Program-made: the position numbers and the translations under genes
Part shown: piece after piece, positions 2,821-30,854 of the stretch
Layout: every line of letters starts with the position of its first letter
Position numbering within the stretch: the first letter of the stretch is position 1
Notes under the pieces: model-generated
What the model saw: only the letters and a program-made list of their open reading frames with translations
Databases searched by the model: none
Told to the model about the DNA's origin: nothing
Source of the DNA: a virus
Lineage: Duplodnaviria; Heunggongvirae; Uroviricota; Caudoviricetes
Length of the DNA: 31,322 nucleotides
Strand: one strand, 5' to 3'
IMG/VR virus record: IMGVR_UViG_647533158_000003

Positions 2821-2994
2821 ATGAAAGCGTTTGTCACTTACCTGAAAAACGAATCACCGGCCATGCAATTGCCCAGTGGTTCAACGGGCTGGATTGAACT
2901 GCCGAACGGTCAGCGCTGGAACCCTGGCCACATGTACAAATTCAATGGCCAGCAGCCGCGTCGCCCGTGGTGGCGTCGTCTGATGGGGCTATAG
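2821..2994 (+). CDS. Small hypothetical early protein (57 aa), in the position of 186 fil
   Basis: ATG at 2821, preceded by GAGGGAG, with an open frame to TAG at 2992..2994 (MKAFVTYLKNESPAMQLPSGSTGWIELPNGQRWNPGHMYKFNGQQPRRPWWRRLMGL). Not on the track because it is under 60 aa. Function not recognised. Confidence 0.4.
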   Translation: MKAFVTYLKNESPAMQLPSGSTGWIELPNGQRWNPGHMYKFNGQQPRRPWWRRLMGL

Positions 2995-3003
2995 GGGGGC
3001 GCT

Positions 3004-3432
3004 ATGGCGATTAGCCAGGAACAGCAAAAGCGCGGGCTGGAGCATTTAAAACAGATCCGCCGCAAATACTTCAGCGAAAGCAGCGAGGCCGCTGAATGGT
3101 GGGACAACTTGACACCGGAGTGGCGCGGCGTAGTACTTCATGCTGCTGCGGTTACTTCTGGTACCGGGGCATTTAAAGCCCATTTAAGCAAGTGCTGCTG
3201 GCGTGAGCTTTATGAACGCTTGGGCTATCGGGACATGATTCAACTGCGCCAGGGCATTTCACGGGCGCGGTTAACGTTTGAAGGTTTCGGCAGTTTACGT
3301 GACAGCGATTTTTCGAAACGTACCGCGAACCGCCCAATCAAGAAGGTTCATCCAATTTATAGCAGCAGCGGGGTGCAGATGGTGATTGCACCTCATATTG
3401 TCCAGAAGTTACAGCAACAGGGGAATCACTGA
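3004..3432 (+). CDS. Hypothetical early-region protein
   Basis: 142-aa ORF, tightly packed in the early operon between cII and gene A. No family recognised. Confidence 0.6.
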   Translation: MAISQEQQKRGLEHLKQIRRKYFSESSEAAEWWDNLTPEWRGVVLHAAAVTSGTGAFKAHLSKCCWRELYERLGYRDMIQLRQGISRARLTFEGFGSLRDSDFSKRTANRPIKKVHPIYSSSGVQMVIAPHIVQKLQQQGNH

Positions 3433-3833
3433 TGTCCATTATTTCGGTTGAAGGTAAATCACTAGGGGCAGAGCTGGCTGTGTGGGGCGTCCCGCATAAC
3501 TACGCATTAGCGTTTGCAGAGAAAAGCACCAGTAAAAATGGGCGTATCGCTTTGCATCCGTTCTTCTTCAACGACACTGAACACATGACAAATCCGCGTC
3601 ACTGGCTGGCGATCAATGCTGCTTTCTGGTGCTGCGTATATCGCGAAGCGAAAAGCAAAGAAGCCCAGATAGAAGCGCTGGCGGGGATTCGTGCAATTTT
3701 CTATACAGCCGGGGCGTTGGGAGTTGGCGAGATAAAAGCGCTGATCCAGGAGTGGTGGCGGATAACCTATGAGCTGCACCTGATTCCGGCACCGAACTAC
3801 TCAGCCGCCACAGTACAACCCACTTTTCACTAA
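3432..3833 (+). CDS. Hypothetical early-region protein
   Basis: 133-aa ORF whose start overlaps the upstream stop (translational coupling). No family recognised. Confidence 0.6.
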   Translation: MSIISVEGKSLGAELAVWGVPHNYALAFAEKSTSKNGRIALHPFFFNDTEHMTNPRHWLAINAAFWCCVYREAKSKEAQIEALAGIRAIFYTAGALGVGEIKALIQEWWRITYELHLIPAPNYSAATVQPTFH

Positions 3834-3900: not shown

Positions 3901-4134
3901 ATGCACATGACACGTCAGGATTTACCCGCAACAAAATCAGGCACCGACCTGCTGGCCATGCTCACCAAAGCCACGCAGGAAGGTAAAGCCGCAACTGCTG
4001 ATCTGTGTTCCACCCGTCTGGATAAGCTGGCTACTCATGCAGCCAATGAAGGTTTAAGCGCAGCGGAAATCGTTGAGTTAATCCGCGAAGAAGCCGCAGC
4101 TATTTGCAGTAAAGGCGGTGCCGTATGGCAGTGA
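3901..4134 (+). CDS. Hypothetical small early protein
   Basis: 77-aa ORF directly upstream of replication gene A. No family recognised. Confidence 0.45.
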   Translation: MHMTRQDLPATKSGTDLLAMLTKATQEGKAATADLCSTRLDKLATHAANEGLSAAEIVELIREEAAAICSKGGAVWQ

Positions 4135-4158
4135 TAACTCGGTAAAAGTGGGTTAACC

Positions 4159-6183
4159 GTGATTGATATGCTGGAACCTAGCCAACACCACGCCGTCAAT
4201 GCCTGGCGGCGTGAAACCTTTGCGCCTGGCAGCCCGTCAGATGCGACGATCACAGAACGCCGCCTGTGGGCTGTTAACCCAGAGGATTACGAATGGCGTT
4301 CCCAGTACCTGCATGAGATACCCGACTGGTTAGCCGGGTATTTTGGCAATCGTTACGAAAGACTGTTTGCTGGTCGTGACGGGCGTTGCCGTGCCAATAC
4401 ATTCCTGCGCCAGACTATCGGTGGGAGTGTATTGCCACGTCTGCGTAAGGTGGCCGCACGTTACACGCTGGCCGCTGATGCACTTGATCTTCCCTTTGGT
4501 AAGTCGCTGGAGCGACTGCCGTCACTTGACCGTCCCGACCTTAAAAAACTGGCTGGACAGATTTCTGGCTGGATCTCCCAGTCATTGTATGACTTCACCG
4601 ATCAGTTTGTTGGCAGCACCGAAGATGCCGCAGAGTTGCGCCGCCGTACGCTGGAGTCTTACCGCCATCTGTGCGCCTGTTCCCTGATGCTAAATAACCA
4701 GCCGCCTTATTGGGCTGAACATGAAGCCAATGGCGGCCAGCTGGAAACACGCAAGGCTGAATCCGGGATTCTTCGCATGATGGCGCTGGAATGGTGGGTG
4801 CTGCGTCTGAAGCGTGCGCGTGATGTGCAGCGTGAACATATGGCTATAGCCGTGGGGCAGGTTCAGAAAGCCGCCACTGCGTATGTATCCCGCAAAACCC
4901 TGGGTGAATGGGTTGACCAGAAAAAGCGGAATCTGGAGTTCTTTAAAAAGTTTGATCTGCTGAATGATGAGGGGCTGCGCATTTCACTGGACAGTATGGT
5001 GCATCGCAGCGTTGCAAATCCGGCGATCCGTCGCTGTGAGCTAATGGTAAGAATGAGAGGATTTGAAGATATGGCCAATGAAGAAGGGCTGGCCGGTGAG
5101 TTTTACACCATCACCGCGCCATCACGCTTTCATGCGGTACACAGTAAAGGTGGTTTTGTTTCGCAATGGGATGGATGTACACCGCAGGATACCCAGCGTT
5201 ATTTATGTGGTGTATGGGCGAAAGCCCGCGCAGCGATCTCCCGTGCCGGTATTCATGTTTTTGGTTTTCGCGTGGTTGAGCCTCACCATGACGGGACACC
5301 GCATTGGCATATGTTGCTGTTTATGCGCCCGCACGATGTGGACACCGTGCGCGATATCCTTTGCTATCACGCCAGAATTACCGACTCTGAAGAACTGAAA
5401 ACAGAAAAGGCGCTTAAGGCACGTTTTCATGTTGAGGCTATCGATCCCGCCAAAGGTTCGGCAACGGGTTACATCGCCAAGTACATTTCCAAAAACATTG
5501 ATGGATTTGCACTGGATGGTGAACAGGACGACGAAACCGGGGAGAACATGCGCGATATGGCCAAATCCGTTTCTGCCTGGGCTTCACGCTGGCGTATCCG
5601 CCAGTTTCAACAGATTGGCGGTGCGCCGGTGACTGTCTGGCGTGAGCTGCGCCGGTTGCGTGATCAGGTGCTGACCGATCGCAAAATGGATGCAGTGCTG
5701 GCCGCTGCTGATGTTGGAGACTGGGCAGCGTATACCCAGGCGCAGGGTGGCGCACTGGTTGCCCGTCGTGATCTGGTTGTTCGTCTGGCCTATGAAATCA
5801 CAGAACAGGGTAACGAGTACGCGGAGGACGTGCAGCGCGTTCAGGGTGTCTATTCTCCCTTAGTTCCAGATTCAGAGGTTTGTACACGTCTGGTGAAGTG
5901 GCAGAAGGTGGCGAAGTTGGCCGAAGCGTCAGCGGAGGCTGGTTTTTCTGGCGGCAGCGCCGCCCCTTGGAGTTCTGTCAATAACTGTACGGAGGGTGGA
6001 ACCCGCAGACGGTTAAAACTGGAATTGCGCAGCCGGGGTTTTGATGGTTCTGACGAAGAAATAGCCATTCTCATGCGGGGTAGTGGTTTGAGATTTGGCC
6101 AGGTGGCATTGATTTACCGTAATGGCCGGTTGCAAGAGACACGAAGCGAGCCAATGCACGAGCTGTGGCCGGGGTGGTTGTAG
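4159..6183 (+). CDS. A: Replication initiation endonuclease, P2 gpA / 186 A family (rolling-circle initiator)
   Basis: 674 aa. Contains the HUH-like motif PHWHMLLF and the tyrosine motif GYIAKYISKN typical of P2 gpA-family initiators. Start is GTG at 4159 or ATG at 4165. Confidence 0.93.
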   Translation: MIDMLEPSQHHAVNAWRRETFAPGSPSDATITERRLWAVNPEDYEWRSQYLHEIPDWLAGYFGNRYERLFAGRDGRCRANTFLRQTIGGSVLPRLRKVAARYTLAADALDLPFGKSLERLPSLDRPDLKKLAGQISGWISQSLYDFTDQFVGSTEDAAELRRRTLESYRHLCACSLMLNNQPPYWAEHEANGGQLETRKAESGILRMMALEWWVLRLKRARDVQREHMAIAVGQVQKAATAYVSRKTLGEWVDQKKRNLEFFKKFDLLNDEGLRISLDSMVHRSVANPAIRRCELMVRMRGFEDMANEEGLAGEFYTITAPSRFHAVHSKGGFVSQWDGCTPQDTQRYLCGVWAKARAAISRAGIHVFGFRVVEPHHDGTPHWHMLLFMRPHDVDTVRDILCYHARITDSEELKTEKALKARFHVEAIDPAKGSATGYIAKYISKNIDGFALDGEQDDETGENMRDMAKSVSAWASRWRIRQFQQIGGAPVTVWRELRRLRDQVLTDRKMDAVLAAADVGDWAAYTQAQGGALVARRDLVVRLAYEITEQGNEYAEDVQRVQGVYSPLVPDSEVCTRLVKWQKVAKLAEASAEAGFSGGSAAPWSSVNNCTEGGTRRRLKLELRSRGFDGSDEEIAILMRGSGLRFGQVALIYRNGRLQETRSEPMHELWPGWL

Positions 6184-6302: not shown

Positions 6303-6485
6303 ATGGATCTTTTGGAAGCGTCGGCACAGCTGGAGCGTATTGAGTTATTGGCCAAAATTGCCCATGTGTACGAAAGTGACCAGCGCGAGAAAACAATCGC
6401 TTTGGCCTGGATTGGTGAGATTGCAGGAGAAATGCGACACGATCTTAGAAAAGATTTAAAAAAACAAGGTCAGGGGCCTTTCTAG
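6303..6485 (+). CDS. Small hypothetical protein (60 aa) downstream of gene A
   Basis: ATG preceded by GGGGG. Could be the last early-operon ORF. Weak support. Confidence 0.35.
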   Translation: MDLLEASAQLERIELLAKIAHVYESDQREKTIALAWIGEIAGEMRHDLRKDLKKQGQGPF

Positions 6486-6606
6486 TATCTGATGGGGAAT
6501 GTTAACTCATTGACAATACTATAATCTCAGTTGTAAGGTACCGAATGTTATAGTGTTTAAGATGATTAATAGCTTGTTGACTATAAATTTATCTATATCT
6601 CTTAAA

Positions 6607-6650
6607 CCCTCACTTTATTTTGATAAGAGTGAGGGGGGATATGATTTTTT
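6607..6650. terminator. Candidate bidirectional terminator hairpin (CCCTCACT ... AGTGAGGG) with a downstream T-run
   Basis: 8-bp perfect stem at 6607..6614 and 6628..6635, followed by ATTTTTT at 6644..6650. It sits between convergent genes 6303..6485 (plus) and 6657..7694 (minus). Confidence 0.4.
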
Positions 6651-6656
6651 ACGTTC

Positions 6657-7694
6657 TTAAACTTCTACTTCATTTTTAGAGTATATTTCCCCATCTTCTT
6701 TACGTATGCAATCACCAATGATGACTTTAAAATCTAATGATTTAATCGTATCAATAACATGATTGAGATAAATGCTATCAATTGTAGCAGGGCATAAACT
6801 TTTTAACTCATGGCCAAGTGGTGTTAGAATTAAAACCCTTAGTTTAAGTTCTTTCTTTGGATCGTCATGTTTAATCTGCATTACTTTATCATTATATATA
6901 TGATAATAAAAATAGGTTTCTTTACTAAGAGACTTGAAAGTTGAAGCTAATCCCATTGACTCAACTCCAGCAATGATGCCCAATGATTGCATCTCAGATA
7001 AAAAATTATAGTTTAGCTCATTATCTAAGTATTCGTTGCTGAAGTTCGAACCAACTTTCTCCCCCTTGATAATCCTATCAAGAAAGAGAAAAGAGAACAG
7101 TTTTTGTATTTTATTTGCTTCTTTTTGTGTCAGATTTTTGATGAAATCAACAGTTCTTAATGAATACGAACCTGGGCTTTTTAATTCACCTGCAAGTATT
7201 CTTCCCCATAAATCCTGTAACTTCTCTGAACTACTTGTTGCAGCACTATCTCTCCACCTTAGCAACCAATCATTTTCTATATTTTCGGCAGTAGGCTCAG
7301 ACTGATCAATTGAAAGTATTTCTTCGGCAACAAATAATGACTTGGCGATATTTATTTCTTTCTGGACTTCATTTGCAATAAGTTGAGTGCTTACTGCATT
7401 TTTTAAATTATCGAAATTTATGTAAGGCTCCATTGAACCTGAATTATCATACTCTTGTTTACTTTCTAATGAAATCAGTTTGGGGTTGTTTAGATCATTT
7501 AACGAAACGATTGCTTTTCCACTTTTTATGTTCTCAACATCCATCTCTGTTTGAGCCAAAACTAACATTTTTTTCCTTTCCATTTCTAAACTGGCAACTC
7601 CCTCCCTACGCATTTGCCAGGGCTTACATAAAGCGCCAATACCTTTTTCTGCTGTGGTTTCCCACAGTTTAGTTACAAGCTTTGAACCAAACAT
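6657..7694 (-). CDS. Orphan AT-rich accessory protein (345 aa) in the P2 A-to-Q accessory hotspot; candidate anti-phage defense or superinfection-exclusion gene of unknown family
   Basis: Clean 345-aa ORF with an ATG start and an AGGAG RBS. Composition is visibly much more AT-rich than the flanking phage genes. It occupies the slot where P2 carries old/tin. No catalytic motif recognised by eye. Confidence 0.75.
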   Translation of the reverse strand: MFGSKLVTKLWETTAEKGIGALCKPWQMRREGVASLEMERKKMLVLAQTEMDVENIKSGKAIVSLNDLNNPKLISLESKQEYDNSGSMEPYINFDNLKNAVSTQLIANEVQKEINIAKSLFVAEEILSIDQSEPTAENIENDWLLRWRDSAATSSSEKLQDLWGRILAGELKSPGSYSLRTVDFIKNLTQKEANKIQKLFSFLFLDRIIKGEKVGSNFSNEYLDNELNYNFLSEMQSLGIIAGVESMGLASTFKSLSKETYFYYHIYNDKVMQIKHDDPKKELKLRVLILTPLGHELKSLCPATIDSIYLNHVIDTIKSLDFKVIIGDCIRKEDGEIYSKNEVEV

Positions 7695-7697
7695 TCT

Positions 7698-7709
7698 AGG
7701 AGATCTCCT
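7698..7709. promoter_or_regulatory. Perfect 12-bp palindrome AGGAGATCTCCT overlapping the RBS of the 345-aa gene
   Basis: The sequence is its own reverse complement and contains the Shine-Dalgarno AGGAG of the gene starting at 7694. Possible operator or RBS-sequestering hairpin. Confidence 0.3.
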
Positions 7710-7844
7710 GCACCAATTTTAGGTAATAATATAATGCAAAAAATATAACGCACTGATTTTATAATGGAAAGATATCAGAGATCACTGGCATGAGTCTAGA
7801 CAGAGCAATTTGGGCATAAATGATGACTCAAACGGGAGATATTC

Positions 7845-8114
7845 TCACGCTACAGTTGTGGCTTTCAGTAAATCCAGTGCCATCTGTTTTTGAGACGGTG
7901 ACATGTTGTTAAGTAGGGCTTGAACAATCACATCACCCGTTTTCGCACTGGGGCTGAGAGTGTGGGAGAACGTCAGATTCATCACAAACGTATGGCCACA
8001 CTCAACATCTGAACAGGCGCAGTAAATATCCGCAATCTGCCGGTGCTTCCGGTTTGTTTTACGAATAACAGCCTTTGAGCCGCATTCCGGGCATTCGATT
8101 TTCAGAACTCGCAT
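7845..8114 (-). CDS. ogr: Ogr/Delta-family zinc-finger late-gene transcription activator
   Basis: CPECGSKAVIRKTNRKHRQIADIYCACSDVECGHTF matches the C-x2-C ... C-x4-C Ogr/Delta zinc-finger pattern (compare P2 Ogr CPLC...YHQCQNVNCSATF as recalled). I take the start at the internal Met MRVLKIECPECG; the track ORF extends to 8168. Confidence 0.75.
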   Translation of the reverse strand: MRVLKIECPECGSKAVIRKTNRKHRQIADIYCACSDVECGHTFVMNLTFSHTLSPSAKTGDVIVQALLNNMSPSQKQMALDLLKATTVA

Positions 8115-8164
8115 ATTCCATGCTCCAGCTGTTAAATGATGCCTGGATTTTAGCCTTTTTCGCC

Positions 8165-9226
8165 TCATGCCGCATCCTTATCCGTTGATTCTGTGTAACT
8201 TAAATCAAAGTTAAGGCGCAGTCTTTCCGGTATTTCGGGATCGTTGTTAACAGCGGTCATAAACCTGCGCTGAATGGGCGCTATCTCGCTTTTCTTGTAA
8301 ATCCTTTCCGCCTTTTCAACATCCCCCAGACCGGCAGTGTTCTGCGGGACAATTCCTGCCAGTCCTGCCGGAAAGCGGTGCGCGTTGAGAATGTCCTGCG
8401 CACTGATGTTTTTGATGTTGGCAAATTCATCTTTTGCGGAGATATCCCCCATTTCAATGAACTTGATCGCATCCCCATCCCCGCCAGGAATGTTCACCAG
8501 AATAGTGGAGAAGTTACCGATACCTTTGCTGTCACGCAGTTGCTGTTCAATCTCTTCTTCCATTTCATCCGTCATACTGGGATCACGCGTGTAGAGAATG
8601 CCGCCAGTATGAGCGCCGTTGTGGTAGTAGCGGCGGCGAAAAATTACGGCTTCGCTGTTAAGCAATGCCGAGTGTACGCCGCCGATATAGTCGGGCAGTC
8701 CGTAAATATGCTGTTGCGGGTCGTACATCTTGATAAAAATGATATCTTCCTGTGGCCATACCTGCGGTTCGCCGTCCTGCAATACCACATAATCGCCGGG
8801 CTGGTCTGTGGCGTTGTCCCTGACTTTACGGCGGCGAATATACAAGCCGGGTAAAGGTTCCAGGGCAATCACATCCCCCCATCCGTTGCGGATTTTGCCA
8901 ATCGCAATATCCCCGAAGGTTGTATAGTCAAACGCTGCGGCTTCCAGCTGGTCGTAAGTCAGGCCACCGCCCAGATAATCAGACACAATCATATTTTTCC
9001 GGGCGTGGATGATGCCGCCATGCTGACCATTCAGATTGATGAGCTGTGCCAGTGCCAGCCGGTCAATCGGCTGGGTAAAGTGATCGGCGGCATTGTCGTA
9101 CCAGATGTCGCGGTAATCCGTACCGGTGGTCAGCACGGGTTCCGGTTTGCCGAATGTAATGATGCTCATTTTTTTGGACTTATCGCCGCGCGGGTTGCGC
9201 TTAACGAAGCGGTTTTTTTTACTCAT
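8165..9226 (-). CDS. Q: Portal protein (P2 gpQ family)
   Basis: 353-aa ORF immediately downstream of, and overlapping, the terminase gene on the same strand. Size and sequence are consistent with P2 gpQ portal. Confidence 0.9.
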   Translation of the reverse strand: MSKKNRFVKRNPRGDKSKKMSIITFGKPEPVLTTGTDYRDIWYDNAADHFTQPIDRLALAQLINLNGQHGGIIHARKNMIVSDYLGGGLTYDQLEAAAFDYTTFGDIAIGKIRNGWGDVIALEPLPGLYIRRRKVRDNATDQPGDYVVLQDGEPQVWPQEDIIFIKMYDPQQHIYGLPDYIGGVHSALLNSEAVIFRRRYYHNGAHTGGILYTRDPSMTDEMEEEIEQQLRDSKGIGNFSTILVNIPGGDGDAIKFIEMGDISAKDEFANIKNISAQDILNAHRFPAGLAGIVPQNTAGLGDVEKAERIYKKSEIAPIQRRFMTAVNNDPEIPERLRLNFDLSYTESTDKDAA

Positions 9227-27847: not shown

Positions 27848-28399
27848 TACCCCTCGCCTGACGCCCTGCGGCGCAATCTGAGCGCCAAAATCCACACACT
27901 GACACCACGTAACACCTAAAAAGGATCTGTGCCGTCACGTTGCGCTGACGTAGCCACACGCAGACAAAATAAATCTTTCGCAGACAAAAACGGCACTACA
28001 CCGCACCCGCCTGCGGTTTTTGGATCGTGAAAATTTTTCAGTTTTATTTTTCTTCAAACCAGATCTCCAGACCGCACCAGCATTGATGGCTTTGCAGAAA
28101 ACCAAAACTGAAATGATTGAAAATAATTTCACTGTTTTTCAGTAAATAGGATTTATTATTCTATTATATTTTACCGTAACTATCAGATATATAATGATAA
28201 AATTAACTTTGGTTATAATGAAAAGATTGGCAAAAGGGATGTAGTAGTAGACTAAGTTATAGAAATTGTATGATTTTCTTCAAGTTACGATCTGTTGAAA
28301 ACATTATTGGGTTGAAAAAAGTGAAATAGTTATTATGATTTAGTATTCGTGTTTTGATAGTCATTAGATAAGCTTAGAATTGTTATAATATAACATTCA

Positions 28400-28993
28400 A
28401 TGGATAAAATTATGAGCATACTTACTCAATATGGAAAAGAAATTTTTGCTTTTATCGTTCCTGTCTTCACCTTAATTATAAATAAATATTTTAAAAATAG
28501 TGCCAAGATTAGCTACGGGGAATTGCATCAATTTACTTATCTGATTAACCAACCTTTAACGAATCAAGAAGGTGAAGTGGTGAAATCGTCGCAAACCGTA
28601 CATACGCAATCATATGTTTTTAAGAATGAAGGTAGAGAAGCAGCAACGAATATGGAGGTTATTTTTAACTATGCACCGATGTATCTTAATATTTGGCCAT
28701 CGCGCCTCTATACGGTAAAAAATGATTCAGAACAAAGGCATATTATGGTATTTGATTATTTAGCACCGAAAGAGGTTATACGGTGTGAAGTGATAGCTAT
28801 CAATACACAGGTGCCAATGCTTTTATCTGTAAGGTGCAAAGAAGGTCTTGCTCAGAACATAGTGCTATCGCCACAAAAAGTTTTCCATCCTGCTTTTATA
28901 AACTGTGTTCGTTTCTTGATATTCCTGGGGTCGGTAAGTCTGGTATACATTCTTGTAGTTTTACTTCAGTGGTTACTCTTAAAAACAGGTTAG
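28400..28993 (+). CDS. Hypothetical two-TM membrane protein (197 aa), AT-rich cargo gene
   Basis: Predicted TM helices near the N-terminus (IFAFIVPVFTLIINKYF) and C-terminus (FLIFLGSVSLVYILVVLLQWLLL). Composition is strongly AT-rich. An extended -10 element TGTTATAAT lies at 28381..28389. Confidence 0.55.
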   Translation: MDKIMSILTQYGKEIFAFIVPVFTLIINKYFKNSAKISYGELHQFTYLINQPLTNQEGEVVKSSQTVHTQSYVFKNEGREAATNMEVIFNYAPMYLNIWPSRLYTVKNDSEQRHIMVFDYLAPKEVIRCEVIAINTQVPMLLSVRCKEGLAQNIVLSPQKVFHPAFINCVRFLIFLGSVSLVYILVVLLQWLLLKTG

Positions 28994-29070
28994 AAAGTTA
29001 CCTGTGCAAAAACGCTTTTAGCTTGTGTGATGTTATTGTAAATATTTTCGTGAAATTAACCATTTAAAGA

Positions 29071-29092
29071 AAGCCACTATTTTGAGTGGCTT
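29071..29092. terminator. Candidate bidirectional terminator hairpin between convergent cargo genes
   Basis: 8-bp stem AAGCCACT (29071..29078) and AGTGGCTT (29085..29092) with loop ATTTTG. Lies between the 3' ends of 28400..28993 (plus) and 29133..30557 (minus). Confidence 0.35.
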
Positions 29093-29132
29093 CATTAGGT
29101 TTCTTTAATGGTAGAATTGCGAGTAATGTTTA

Positions 29133-30557
29133 TTAACTCACTAAGTTCACATAGCTGATTGCTATACGTAAAAAACTGTCGAGTGTATCGACGCTTTCTT
29201 TTATTTCTTTGTTGACACTAATCAGTTTTTCCAATCGTTCATCACTAAAATGACTTGTTATATGAATTAAATCTTCTAATATCGAGACTAAATCATTAAC
29301 AATACTAAGCTCTTTTGAAATTTCATTTTTAATAAAGTAATATTCTTCATTACCGAGTTTATCAATTAATTTATGCTGTAACTTATCCCACTTATCCAAT
29401 AGTCCATATGTTTCTGATGTTATTTTTTTCGTATTTACCAGAATAGTAGAACCTTCACTCACTTCTTTAGCATAAAGTCTATTGTGCTTTAACCAGCGAA
29501 TATTTTCATTTCTTTGTTTCAAGATGCTTTTATTTATCTTTTCGAGTTCAACATGTTTGTTCCATTTTTTTATAATATCATTTATCTTATTGTCTGTAAT
29601 TTCATACTCATTAAGAACGTTGCTGTTAAATGATAATTCTTCTACTTCTTTTAGGGAAGACTCACTAATTTCAATATCTTTAAGGTGGTTTTTTGCCTCA
29701 TGTAGAAAAGTTAATTGGTTAATTAATTGGAAGTTTTGGATGTTGGCTTCGTTGCATATTTCTGTTTTTAAAGACTCAAGAGCACCGTGTGTTTTTCCAG
29801 CGTGTGCAAACCACCAATCCTCTTTGTTATCATCACAAATAAAAATTACATTTTTTATTTTCTCTGATTTGGCTTTTTCAATGATTTCTCTCCATAAATA
29901 CAAATCACCGAATTTGTCCTGAAATTCAATGTTTGTGAAGAATGATTTACTTTTCTTTGGCGCGTCTTTGAATCCTGGTGGTATCTTATTTTCATATCTT
30001 TTTTCACCAAGTGCATTTATTTTATCTATTTGTTCCTGAGTAGGGACTTCACCAACTCTATTAGAGGTAATTATGTCGATCCTGTCACGAATAATGTCAT
30101 GCTTCGATATTTTCTTTTTGTTTTCAATTCTTGGAGTTATCTTTTTATTAATATACTCCTCAATTGGTTTTTTAATTTTACTTTGCAGATCAGAAAGTTC
30201 TTTGTTTAAAGCGCTATAAAGATGTTTTTTTACACTACCAGAAGATAATATTTCTTTCGTATAAATGCTTTCTAATTCATCTTTAATTTTATCTAGGCTT
30301 TTAATACTATCTTCAATTACAGAACGTCTGTTTCTCTGATATTCAAATCCAACTTGGAATGGTATCCAAGTTCTGGGAGCAATAGCATCCATTACTTTAA
30401 GTATATCTTCGCGGGTATGATCTTCACATCTATATAAGTTAAGAAGGCAATTTGTATCAAAAACAAAAAGAGTGGAATCATCCAACCATATATTTGCTAC
30501 TGATTCAGTAGGAGTACTATAGAAACCTAAAAAGGTTGATTTCAAGGGGACCTCCAA
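29133..30557 (-). CDS. PIN-like domain protein (474 aa), candidate nuclease-type defense or abortive-infection effector; start probably TTG (30555..30557, or 30543..30545 after a GGAGG RBS)
   Basis: N-terminal strand motif LFVFDTNCLLNLY is a typical PIN beta-1 signature with the first catalytic Asp; a later acidic cluster VIFICDDNKEDWW follows. The C-terminal half is long, Lys/Glu-rich and helical. The gene is AT-rich and sits in the cargo island. Confidence 0.7.
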   Translation of the reverse strand: MEVPLKSTFLGFYSTPTESVANIWLDDSTLFVFDTNCLLNLYRCEDHTREDILKVMDAIAPRTWIPFQVGFEYQRNRRSVIEDSIKSLDKIKDELESIYTKEILSSGSVKKHLYSALNKELSDLQSKIKKPIEEYINKKITPRIENKKKISKHDIIRDRIDIITSNRVGEVPTQEQIDKINALGEKRYENKIPPGFKDAPKKSKSFFTNIEFQDKFGDLYLWREIIEKAKSEKIKNVIFICDDNKEDWWFAHAGKTHGALESLKTEICNEANIQNFQLINQLTFLHEAKNHLKDIEISESSLKEVEELSFNSNVLNEYEITDNKINDIIKKWNKHVELEKINKSILKQRNENIRWLKHNRLYAKEVSEGSTILVNTKKITSETYGLLDKWDKLQHKLIDKLGNEEYYFIKNEISKELSIVNDLVSILEDLIHITSHFSDERLEKLISVNKEIKESVDTLDSFLRIAISYVNLVS

Positions 30558-30646
30558 TGTTTTTAACTACTTCATAACTAGCATATTTTATTCAAGTGAT
30601 CCGGTGTTCGCAACTCCTTTGGATAATGGTGTCTAAATATTAATGA

Positions 30647-30661
30647 GACATTTTTGCGACA
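30647..30661. repeat. Putative attR core (GACATTTTTGCGACA)
   Basis: Exact copy of 309..323, lying between the last cargo gene and the mntR upstream region. Confidence 0.4.
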
Positions 30662-30737
30662 CTTTTTTGTTTATTTTTATATTGCACTGTTAATTGCATG
30701 TTTTTTAAGGGATAAATTTTTTAATAATTAAAAACAA

Positions 30738-30754
30738 AGCTATATTATATAGCT
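30738..30754. promoter_or_regulatory. 17-bp perfect palindrome AGCTATAT-T-ATATAGCT upstream of mntR
   Basis: It is its own reverse complement around a central T, about 100 bp upstream of the mntR start. It shares the ATATAGC half-site with the MntR-box-like repeat at 188..205, but in everted orientation. Confidence 0.35.
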
Positions 30755-30854
30755 ATTGCTAAAACGTTAATTTTTTGTACCTTCGCAACTCTGGTTTACA
30801 ATGTGCGCACGAAATGAGAACGCTATGTATGCGTCACCATAATGAGGAAGCACA

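Follow-up and report, generated by a model that had tools for sequence, protein, structure and literature searches.

In a 31,322-nucleotide stretch of DNA from a Caudoviricetes virus (IMG/VR record IMGVR_UViG_647533158_000003; hereafter the window), the minus-strand gene at positions 6657–7694 encodes a 345-amino-acid (aa) protein of the Pfam family DUF2806 (PF10987). The gene lies between the replication gene A and the Ogr-like and portal genes of a P2/186-like prophage, and is very likely an exchangeable accessory defense cargo of the P2 hotspot. We consider it probable that its product is a soluble, single-protein anti-phage defense of the abortive-infection type within the DUF2806 superfamily, because the two characterized relatives, Belisama and AbiAlpha, cause culture lysis and premature lysis, respectively. 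As a DUF2806/Belisama-like gene related to AbiAlpha and residing in a known hotspot, it is an example of an existing kind of defense and opens no new category. A first-pass annotation, made from the letters of the DNA, had described the gene as an orphan and as a candidate for an undescribed defense in an accessory hotspot, possibly acting by abortive infection. The first two labels do not hold: the family has thousands of members, the protein is annotated in RefSeq, and both an anti-phage DUF2806 system and the link to AbiAlpha had been published. The hotspot location is borne out by the comparisons below, and abortive infection is what we too judge the best reading, from the phenotypes of the relatives.

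The protein belongs to the DUF2806 family

The open reading frame (ORF) is unlikely to be fortuitous, with a chance of about 1e-13 that 345 stop-free codons arise at the local composition. Its product matched the DUF2806 profile at 90.6 bits against a gathering threshold of 24.5 (E = 1.8e-25), with residues 109–313 aligned to profile positions 11–220 of 221, which bears out the tentative mention of DUF2806-like proteins at first pass. The same profile was matched by all 61 aligned relatives. At E <= 1e-3 the family comprises 5,781 cluster representatives, of which 295 remain at E <= 1e-30; its top matches are full-length (~335–350 aa), and the relatives come from Enterobacterales, Aeromonas, Vibrio, Shewanella, Xanthomonas and Stutzerimonas, and also from Synechococcus.

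Belisama is the DUF2806 member with a documented phenotype. It was identified when 88 cassettes of the Vibrio cholerae N16961 integron were tested and 16 new anti-phage systems were named (Darracq et al, bioRxiv 10.1101/2024.07.02.601686). In that study, this single-gene DUF2806 system blocked phages, showed detectable homology to Abi-alpha, led to strong lysis of the culture without recovery at a multiplicity of infection of 10 and was toxic at full induction or overexpression; homologues, defined by a blastp E < 1e-5 and a coverage of 50% or more of the N16961 reference, were found in 70 genera (bioRxiv 10.1101/2024.07.02.601686). Belisama is now among the systems that DefenseFinder reports, one such call lying on a Desulfovibrio prophage. 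At the domain level the window gene shares with Belisama a DUF2806 domain in a single-gene system. The likeness, drawn by family and description, extends to the occurrence of both on mobile elements across many Pseudomonadota, whereas the window gene rides in a prophage and has an upstream region of its own, and Belisama is a promoterless integron cassette. Full-length relatives (338 aa, 37–39% identity) are themselves cassettes in Vibrio superintegrons, including those of V. cholerae. Searches seeded with the window protein, a Vibrio homologue (P0103) and the short form encoded by IncX4 plasmids returned rare V. cholerae copies (P0301 and P0317) and no pandemic-lineage cluster; cluster look-ups agreed, and a genome scan with one narrow pattern yielded mostly Colwellia paralogues of the TIGR03899 type.

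AbiAlpha provides the second phenotype. It is encoded by ef2833 in prophage 6 of Enterococcus faecalis V583, comprises 272 aa, is active against a Picovirinae phage and causes premature lysis of infected cells; its Pfam family is Abi_alpha (PF14337, formerly DUF4393), and its authors noted the similarity to PF10987 in 2019 (PMC6356687). As of late 2025 the literature still gave its mechanism as unknown; among the prophage proteins of Staphylococcus aureus lysogens, a member of the AbiAlpha family is the most abundant. Like the window protein, AbiAlpha is a prophage-encoded single protein of a similar size class that has no known catalytic domain, and the two are homologous at the family level. 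A homologue 70% identical to the window protein (P0003) just reached the Abi_alpha threshold (29.4 versus 29 bits; residues 150–301, profile positions 38–196), another homologue scored 25.7 bits, and p58 of the Sinorhizobium phage phi3LM21, a short form, scored 26.8 bits. These cross-matches therefore indicate a homologous superfamily, not membership in PF14337. AbiAlpha differs in its Gram-positive hosts, and its premature-lysis phenotype is not transferable to the window protein by assumption. We also considered an "Abi_alpha" protein listed in system 141 of a P2-hotspot survey (PMC9122126, supplementary file 6); it has no Abi_alpha match in the current Pfam, aligned to the DUF2806 family alignment with an hhalign probability of 0.1, and was judged unrelated.

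Short forms of the family occur on other mobile elements. A 283-aa protein (WP_000052343.1), 30% identical to the window protein over residues 98–317, is a backbone gene product of conjugative IncX4 plasmids, seen in 313 plasmid records (L025, pSH146_32, 2821–3672); it keeps the N-terminal motif, the core and the C-terminal domain, and lacks approximately residues 56–103 of the window protein. The phi3LM21 short form (229 aa) lacks the N-terminal region (~1–105) and retains the core and C-terminal domain. The IncX4 gene adjoins a DUF2726 gene, and a DUF2726–DUF2806 pair recurs within an integron array of V. cholerae (L158, 4269–6017). Also in V. cholerae (L023/L024, 5419–7017), a 338-aa DUF2806 gene and a weakly GIY-YIG-like gene directly follow the Zot/Rep_trans genes that close an integrated filamentous prophage, which suggests that inoviruses also carry DUF2806 cargo.

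The gene is exchangeable cargo of the gpA–gpQ interval

In P2-like phages the gpA–gpQ interval is a defense hotspot, for which a survey of 18,150 loci recorded 1,650 arrangements (Rousset et al, 2022; PMC9122126). The hotspot loci table of that survey already lists a DUF2806 arrangement ("RVT_1 + hypothetical + DUF2806"), which was untested there (PMC9122126, supplementary). The window gene occupies this position, between gene A and the portal gene Q as the first-pass annotation had placed it, and the contents of the interval vary among related phages. Among 5,426 complete Escherichia coli genomes, the gene was present in two, both from isolates named mip270; in 25 further E. coli genomes, homology to a 1.6-kb query was limited to its ogr end. 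We examined four of these 25 sister prophages. The slot was empty in three and held a different gene in the fourth, which encodes a 243-aa putAbiC (PF16872)/AbiP-like abortive-infection protein.

The identical protein is encoded on at least 161 contigs from E. coli, Salmonella and Citrobacter, and every place returned was this slot, within the same lineage of prophages. Related prophages and a decayed remnant in Rahnella hold homologues with 50–70% identity at this position, and a DUF2806 relative lies between gpA and the portal gene in 12 of the 73 IMG/VR viral loci that carry a relative, among them distant P2-like phages whose gpA is 36–47% and whose DUF2806 gene is 26–46% identical. In one IMG/VR P2-like phage (L032, 5560–7035), a 57%-identical DUF2806 gene lies between gpA and the small backbone ORF orf60 and not between orf60 and ogr; its position on the other side of orf60 therefore implies an independent insertion. 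In the Rahnella P2 remnant (L016), a 266-aa ORF without a Pfam or PADLOC match (4435–5235) stands beside a 51%-identical DUF2806 gene, the pair lying between ogr/portal and gpA fragments.

The arrangement recalls the old and tin genes of P2, which share the slot, its variable occupancy and the role of a short defense system of a P2-like prophage against competing phages. P2 Old (an ATPase–TOPRIM nuclease) and Tin nevertheless have no sequence or domain relation to the window protein, and the window prophage differs from P2 in that its ogr-like gene comes downstream of portal and in that the P2 cos 19-mer is absent throughout the window.

A single-gene module under purifying selection

Comparison with sister loci delimited a cargo module of 1.42 kb that stands where empty-site sister prophages have ~59 bp including a different hairpin, CCCCCAGGAAGGGGG. 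The DUF2806 gene is the sole ORF of this module, as expected for the single-gene system envisaged at first pass, and the module contained no Rfam family and no partner ORF or partner RNA. Its edges carried no direct or inverted flanking repeats and no attC-like element. At the left junction the final ~16 codons of orf60 are replaced; most sister prophages examined have a version of ~65–72 aa.

The GC content of the gene is 0.336, compared with about 0.54 for the phage backbone, and 500-bp windows range from 0.31 to 0.33 against ~0.51–0.58 in the adjoining replication and head genes, so the first-pass observation of a far more AT-rich gene is accurate. Recent horizontal acquisition, however, is not shown by this composition: the slot-resident homologues are all AT-rich (GC 0.32–0.37), and since these diverged copies share the composition, low GC is a lasting property of the cargo and not a mark of recent arrival. 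Selection on the protein is strong and purifying, with a dN/dS of 0.076 against a 96%-identical copy. Slot homologues at 50–70% aa identity retain intact ORFs of 342–345 aa, with pN of 0.17–0.30 and saturated pS.

Translation signals agree with the first-pass gene call, both the ATG-started ORF and the AGGAG Shine-Dalgarno sequence being present. The latter lies within the perfect palindrome AGGAGATCTCCT, which is probably incidental because the sole homologue to preserve it is the 96%-identical copy, those of 53–70% identity being without it. Further upstream, an alignment of DUF2806 modules of 63–100% identity revealed two retained blocks, CAGTGATCT and TTATAAAATCAGTGCG, which form an imperfect inverted repeat flanking the candidate −35 and −10 elements (7735–7800, minus strand); judged from this conservation, the element may be an operator or part of a promoter that travels with the gene. 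Downstream, a stem-loop begins 18 bases 3′ of the stop codon and is stable (−13.9 kcal/mol, z = −3.65), with none of 200 shuffles as stable, although it escaped a scan for consensus terminators. The first-pass annotation had assigned this hairpin to the gene as its terminator. The stem itself stands, but its assignment to this gene alone does not: the gene strand has only UUU after the stem, a weak U-tract, and the T6 run serves the opposite strand, for which reason we read the structure as a probable shared or bidirectional terminator of the convergent orf60 and DUF2806 gene.

Architecture of the protein and a possible mechanism

An AlphaFold2 model built with 61 relatives (mean predicted local distance difference test 82.7, predicted template-modeling (TM) score 0.73) comprises a short N-terminal helix, two helices of ~35 residues (23–57 and 94–128) joined via a variable, low-confidence tip, a helical core (141–238) and an α/β C-terminal domain (250–344). 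Conservation is uneven along this chain: among slot homologues the core is 70–90% identical, and the middle and C-terminal parts are 33–68% identical. The highest Kyte–Doolittle 19-residue window reached 1.12 with no transmembrane segment, which led us to reject the idea of a membrane protein; the "membrane-fusion protein" labels on some homologues probably reflect their long helices. In agreement with the first-pass inspection, which had seen no Walker A or nuclease motif, patterns for Walker A/B, PD-(D/E)xK, HEPN, GIY-YIG and HD were all absent. A loose H..N..H match at residues 265–276 was dismissed, as it falls on a predicted β-strand in a poorly conserved region (majority frequency 0.34–0.42 over residues 261–280).

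Structure searches were sparing in matches. PDB sequences searched by profile yielded no meaningful match, no PDB structure was matched by Foldseek at E < 0.1, and PDB 3H35, which is named in the AbiAlpha paper (PMC6356687), did not surface in the structure searches. In a viral structure library, a single 229-aa protein was matched (E = 8.7e-11, TM-score 0.74); this is probably the phi3LM21 short form, which the model comparison suggests shares the fold.

We propose the following course of events, which takes its first step from the conserved upstream region, its sensing step from the pattern of conservation and its outcome from the phenotypes of Belisama and AbiAlpha. The gene would be transcribed in the lysogen from its own upstream region, and the protein would remain inactive until a heterologous phage infects. 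A component of that phage might then be sensed by the rapidly diverging middle and C-terminal winged-helix-like region, upon which the conserved core (141–200) and the N-terminal motif would execute premature lysis or death before progeny are formed, so that sister lysogens and the prophage they carry would be protected. More tentatively, and on balance we think this unlikely, the long form of 338–345 aa may constitute a mechanistically distinct DUF2806 branch with a novel, non-enzymatic way of killing or lysing infected cells. Such a branch would be set apart by its N-terminal motif, its helical-hairpin extension of ~50 residues, its fast-evolving winged-helix-like C-terminal region and the absence of transmembrane or enzyme motifs; one example of the effector step might be triggered oligomerization that targets the lysis machinery or the envelope.

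If the gene is active, it would be a natural E. coli and Salmonella member of the superfamily that unites DUF2806/Belisama and AbiAlpha and is widespread on prophages, plasmids and integrons. It would offer a convenient model for the trigger and effector steps, given the empty-site comparison and the diverged alleles in the same slot, and would bear on the IncX4 short-form gene that is commonly disrupted by an mcr-1 cassette. Were the long form indeed a distinct branch, the mechanism of the superfamily would become directly testable with a copy native to E. coli and Salmonella.

Points against abortive infection and alternative functions

Several results weigh against an abortive-infection defense. 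The window protein had no match in PHROGs, none to Pfam Abi_alpha at E <= 1 and none among the families of PADLOC-DB v2.0.0 (2023) at E <= 1; homologues P0003, P0103 and P0317 likewise had no PADLOC v2 match, and this release predates Belisama. The defense-system and structure scans recommended at first pass were thus carried out in these forms, and neither PADLOC v2 nor the Foldseek comparison with the PDB placed the protein. No transmembrane segment, enzyme motif or informative structural match accounts for lysis. A DefenseFinder Belisama call in Oceanimonas is only 272 aa, for which reason the validated Belisama may itself be a short form without approximately residues 56–103 of the window protein. 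Promoter evidence is weak, the consensus match count of the candidate promoter not exceeding shuffle expectation. Finally, the superfamily is not purely defensive. A branch defined by NCBIfam TIGR03899 (L120–L156, Colwellia and relatives; 245–249 bits) lies in conserved synteny beside fadB and a gene for a GGDEF-EAL phosphodiesterase; it appears to be vertically inherited in Colwelliaceae and is probably a non-defense paralogue.

Among the alternatives, the one that survives best is non-abortive competition between mobile elements, in which the protein would block establishment of a phage, a P4-like satellite or a plasmid through nucleic-acid binding by its winged-helix-like region while the cell survives. 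That a short-form DUF2806 gene belongs to the conjugative IncX4 backbone is consistent with such a role, as is the ability of P2 hotspot systems to act against close relatives (PMC9122126). Both characterized relatives, however, show death or lysis. Winged-helix folds, moreover, are also frequent as sensors in abortive systems, and we regard non-abortive competition as rather unlikely.

Next, the gene could be a non-defense moron or regulator, comparable to the chromosomal TIGR03899 branch, that sits in a permissive insertion site. The window protein shares the core motifs DW..W, LW..ILAGE and PGS.S.R with that branch, whose synteny and vertical inheritance in Colwelliaceae lend the idea some weight together with the missing PADLOC v2 match, and the hotspot also houses non-defense cargo such as partition systems and cytolethal distending toxin (Rousset et al, PMC9122126). 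The branch is, however, chromosomal and not mobile cargo, and the window protein falls below its curated cutoff (74.4 versus 155.65 bits), aligns to it over residues 108–201 only and is not a member. Close and distant relatives of the window protein are overwhelmingly found on prophages, integron cassettes and plasmids, and the other occupant seen in the same slot is an Abi-type gene, all of which makes a non-defense role quite unlikely in our judgment.

A toxin-like or addiction function that stabilizes the prophage or a plasmid, with any anti-phage effect secondary, seems very improbable. The toxicity of Belisama at high induction would fit it, as would the type I toxin gene dqlB that lies ~1.8 kb from the short-form gene in the IncX4 backbone, but the window gene forms a single-gene module with no partner antitoxin ORF or RNA, and empty-site prophages are common. 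In addition, the mcr-1-pap2 cassette disrupts the DUF2806 gene in many mcr-1 IncX4 plasmids (PMC8221240). Since these disrupted plasmids circulate, the IncX4 copy appears dispensable. A passenger gene, silent or in decay and without current function, as the weak promoter evidence and the AT-rich DNA, a typical H-NS target, might suggest, is extremely unlikely given the purifying selection, the intact ORFs at 50–70% identity despite saturated synonymous sites, and the occurrence of the identical protein in three genera.

Features of the window and of the host prophage

The window holds a complete prophage of ~30.6 kb between the chromosomal genes mntS (1–129) and mntR (from 30855). The features discussed here are collected in Table 1.

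Table 1. Features of the prophage hotspot, the second AT-rich block and the DUF2806 protein; nucleotide positions refer to the window and residue positions to the 345-aa protein.
Feature	Position	Strand	Details
Replication endonuclease gpA	4159..6183	plus	PF05840 Phage_GPA; left hotspot border
orf60, small backbone ORF	6303..6485	plus	60 aa; hypothetical; WP_000364822.1; 3′ of gene A
Cargo module	~6437..7857		~1.42 kb; blastn boundaries versus L003, L004, L005 and L002, plus junction alignments
Stem-loop (~6607-6636) and T6 run (6645-6650)	6607..6650		between convergent orf60 and DUF2806 gene
DUF2806-family gene	6657..7694	minus	345 aa; ORF call, ATG start; RefSeq WP_000468061.1
Perfect palindrome AGGAGATCTCCT	7698-7709		12 bp; overlaps Shine-Dalgarno
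Shine-Dalgarno AGGAG	7705..7709	minus	10 nt 5′ of ATG; within 12-bp palindrome
Candidate sigma-70 promoter	7742..7770	minus	TTTCCA, 17 nt spacer, TATATT; 9/12 consensus matches
Ogr/Delta-like zinc-finger gene	7845..8168	minus	right hotspot border
Portal gene gpQ	8165..9226	minus	right hotspot border
ORF without family	28400..28993		197 aa; in second AT-rich block
PIN_8 protein	29133..30557	minus	474 aa; PF18476, 201 bits
Conserved N-terminal motif	residues 1-57		
Variable linker	residues 58-93		
Long helix	residues 94-128		
Most conserved helical core	residues 141-200		invariant W143, W147, W163, L167, E170, P174, R180
Variable α/β C-terminal domain	residues 249-345		

The backbone ORF orf60 had no Pfam match. 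On the other side of the DUF2806 gene, the ogr, portal and terminase genes are encoded on the strand opposite to gpA and orf60. Beyond the gpA–gpQ interval, sister prophages carrying the identical DUF2806 gene (L006–L012) differ between cI and int, where L010 has a gene for a WYL-domain protein and L012 one for a bPH_3/SHOCT protein; some of these prophages have a KAP NTPase gene just past int. A second AT-rich block (28000–30800, GC 0.28–0.37) lies at the prophage end adjoining mntR. Neither the PIN_8 protein nor the 197-aa ORF found there matches PADLOC v2; the block looks like a second cargo site and is a possible defense candidate. At 4134–4168, the prophage is without two genes that sisters carry between DUF2732 and gpA, one for a DNA adenine methylase and a small ORF that follows it, and this interval is another variable site of the prophage lineage.

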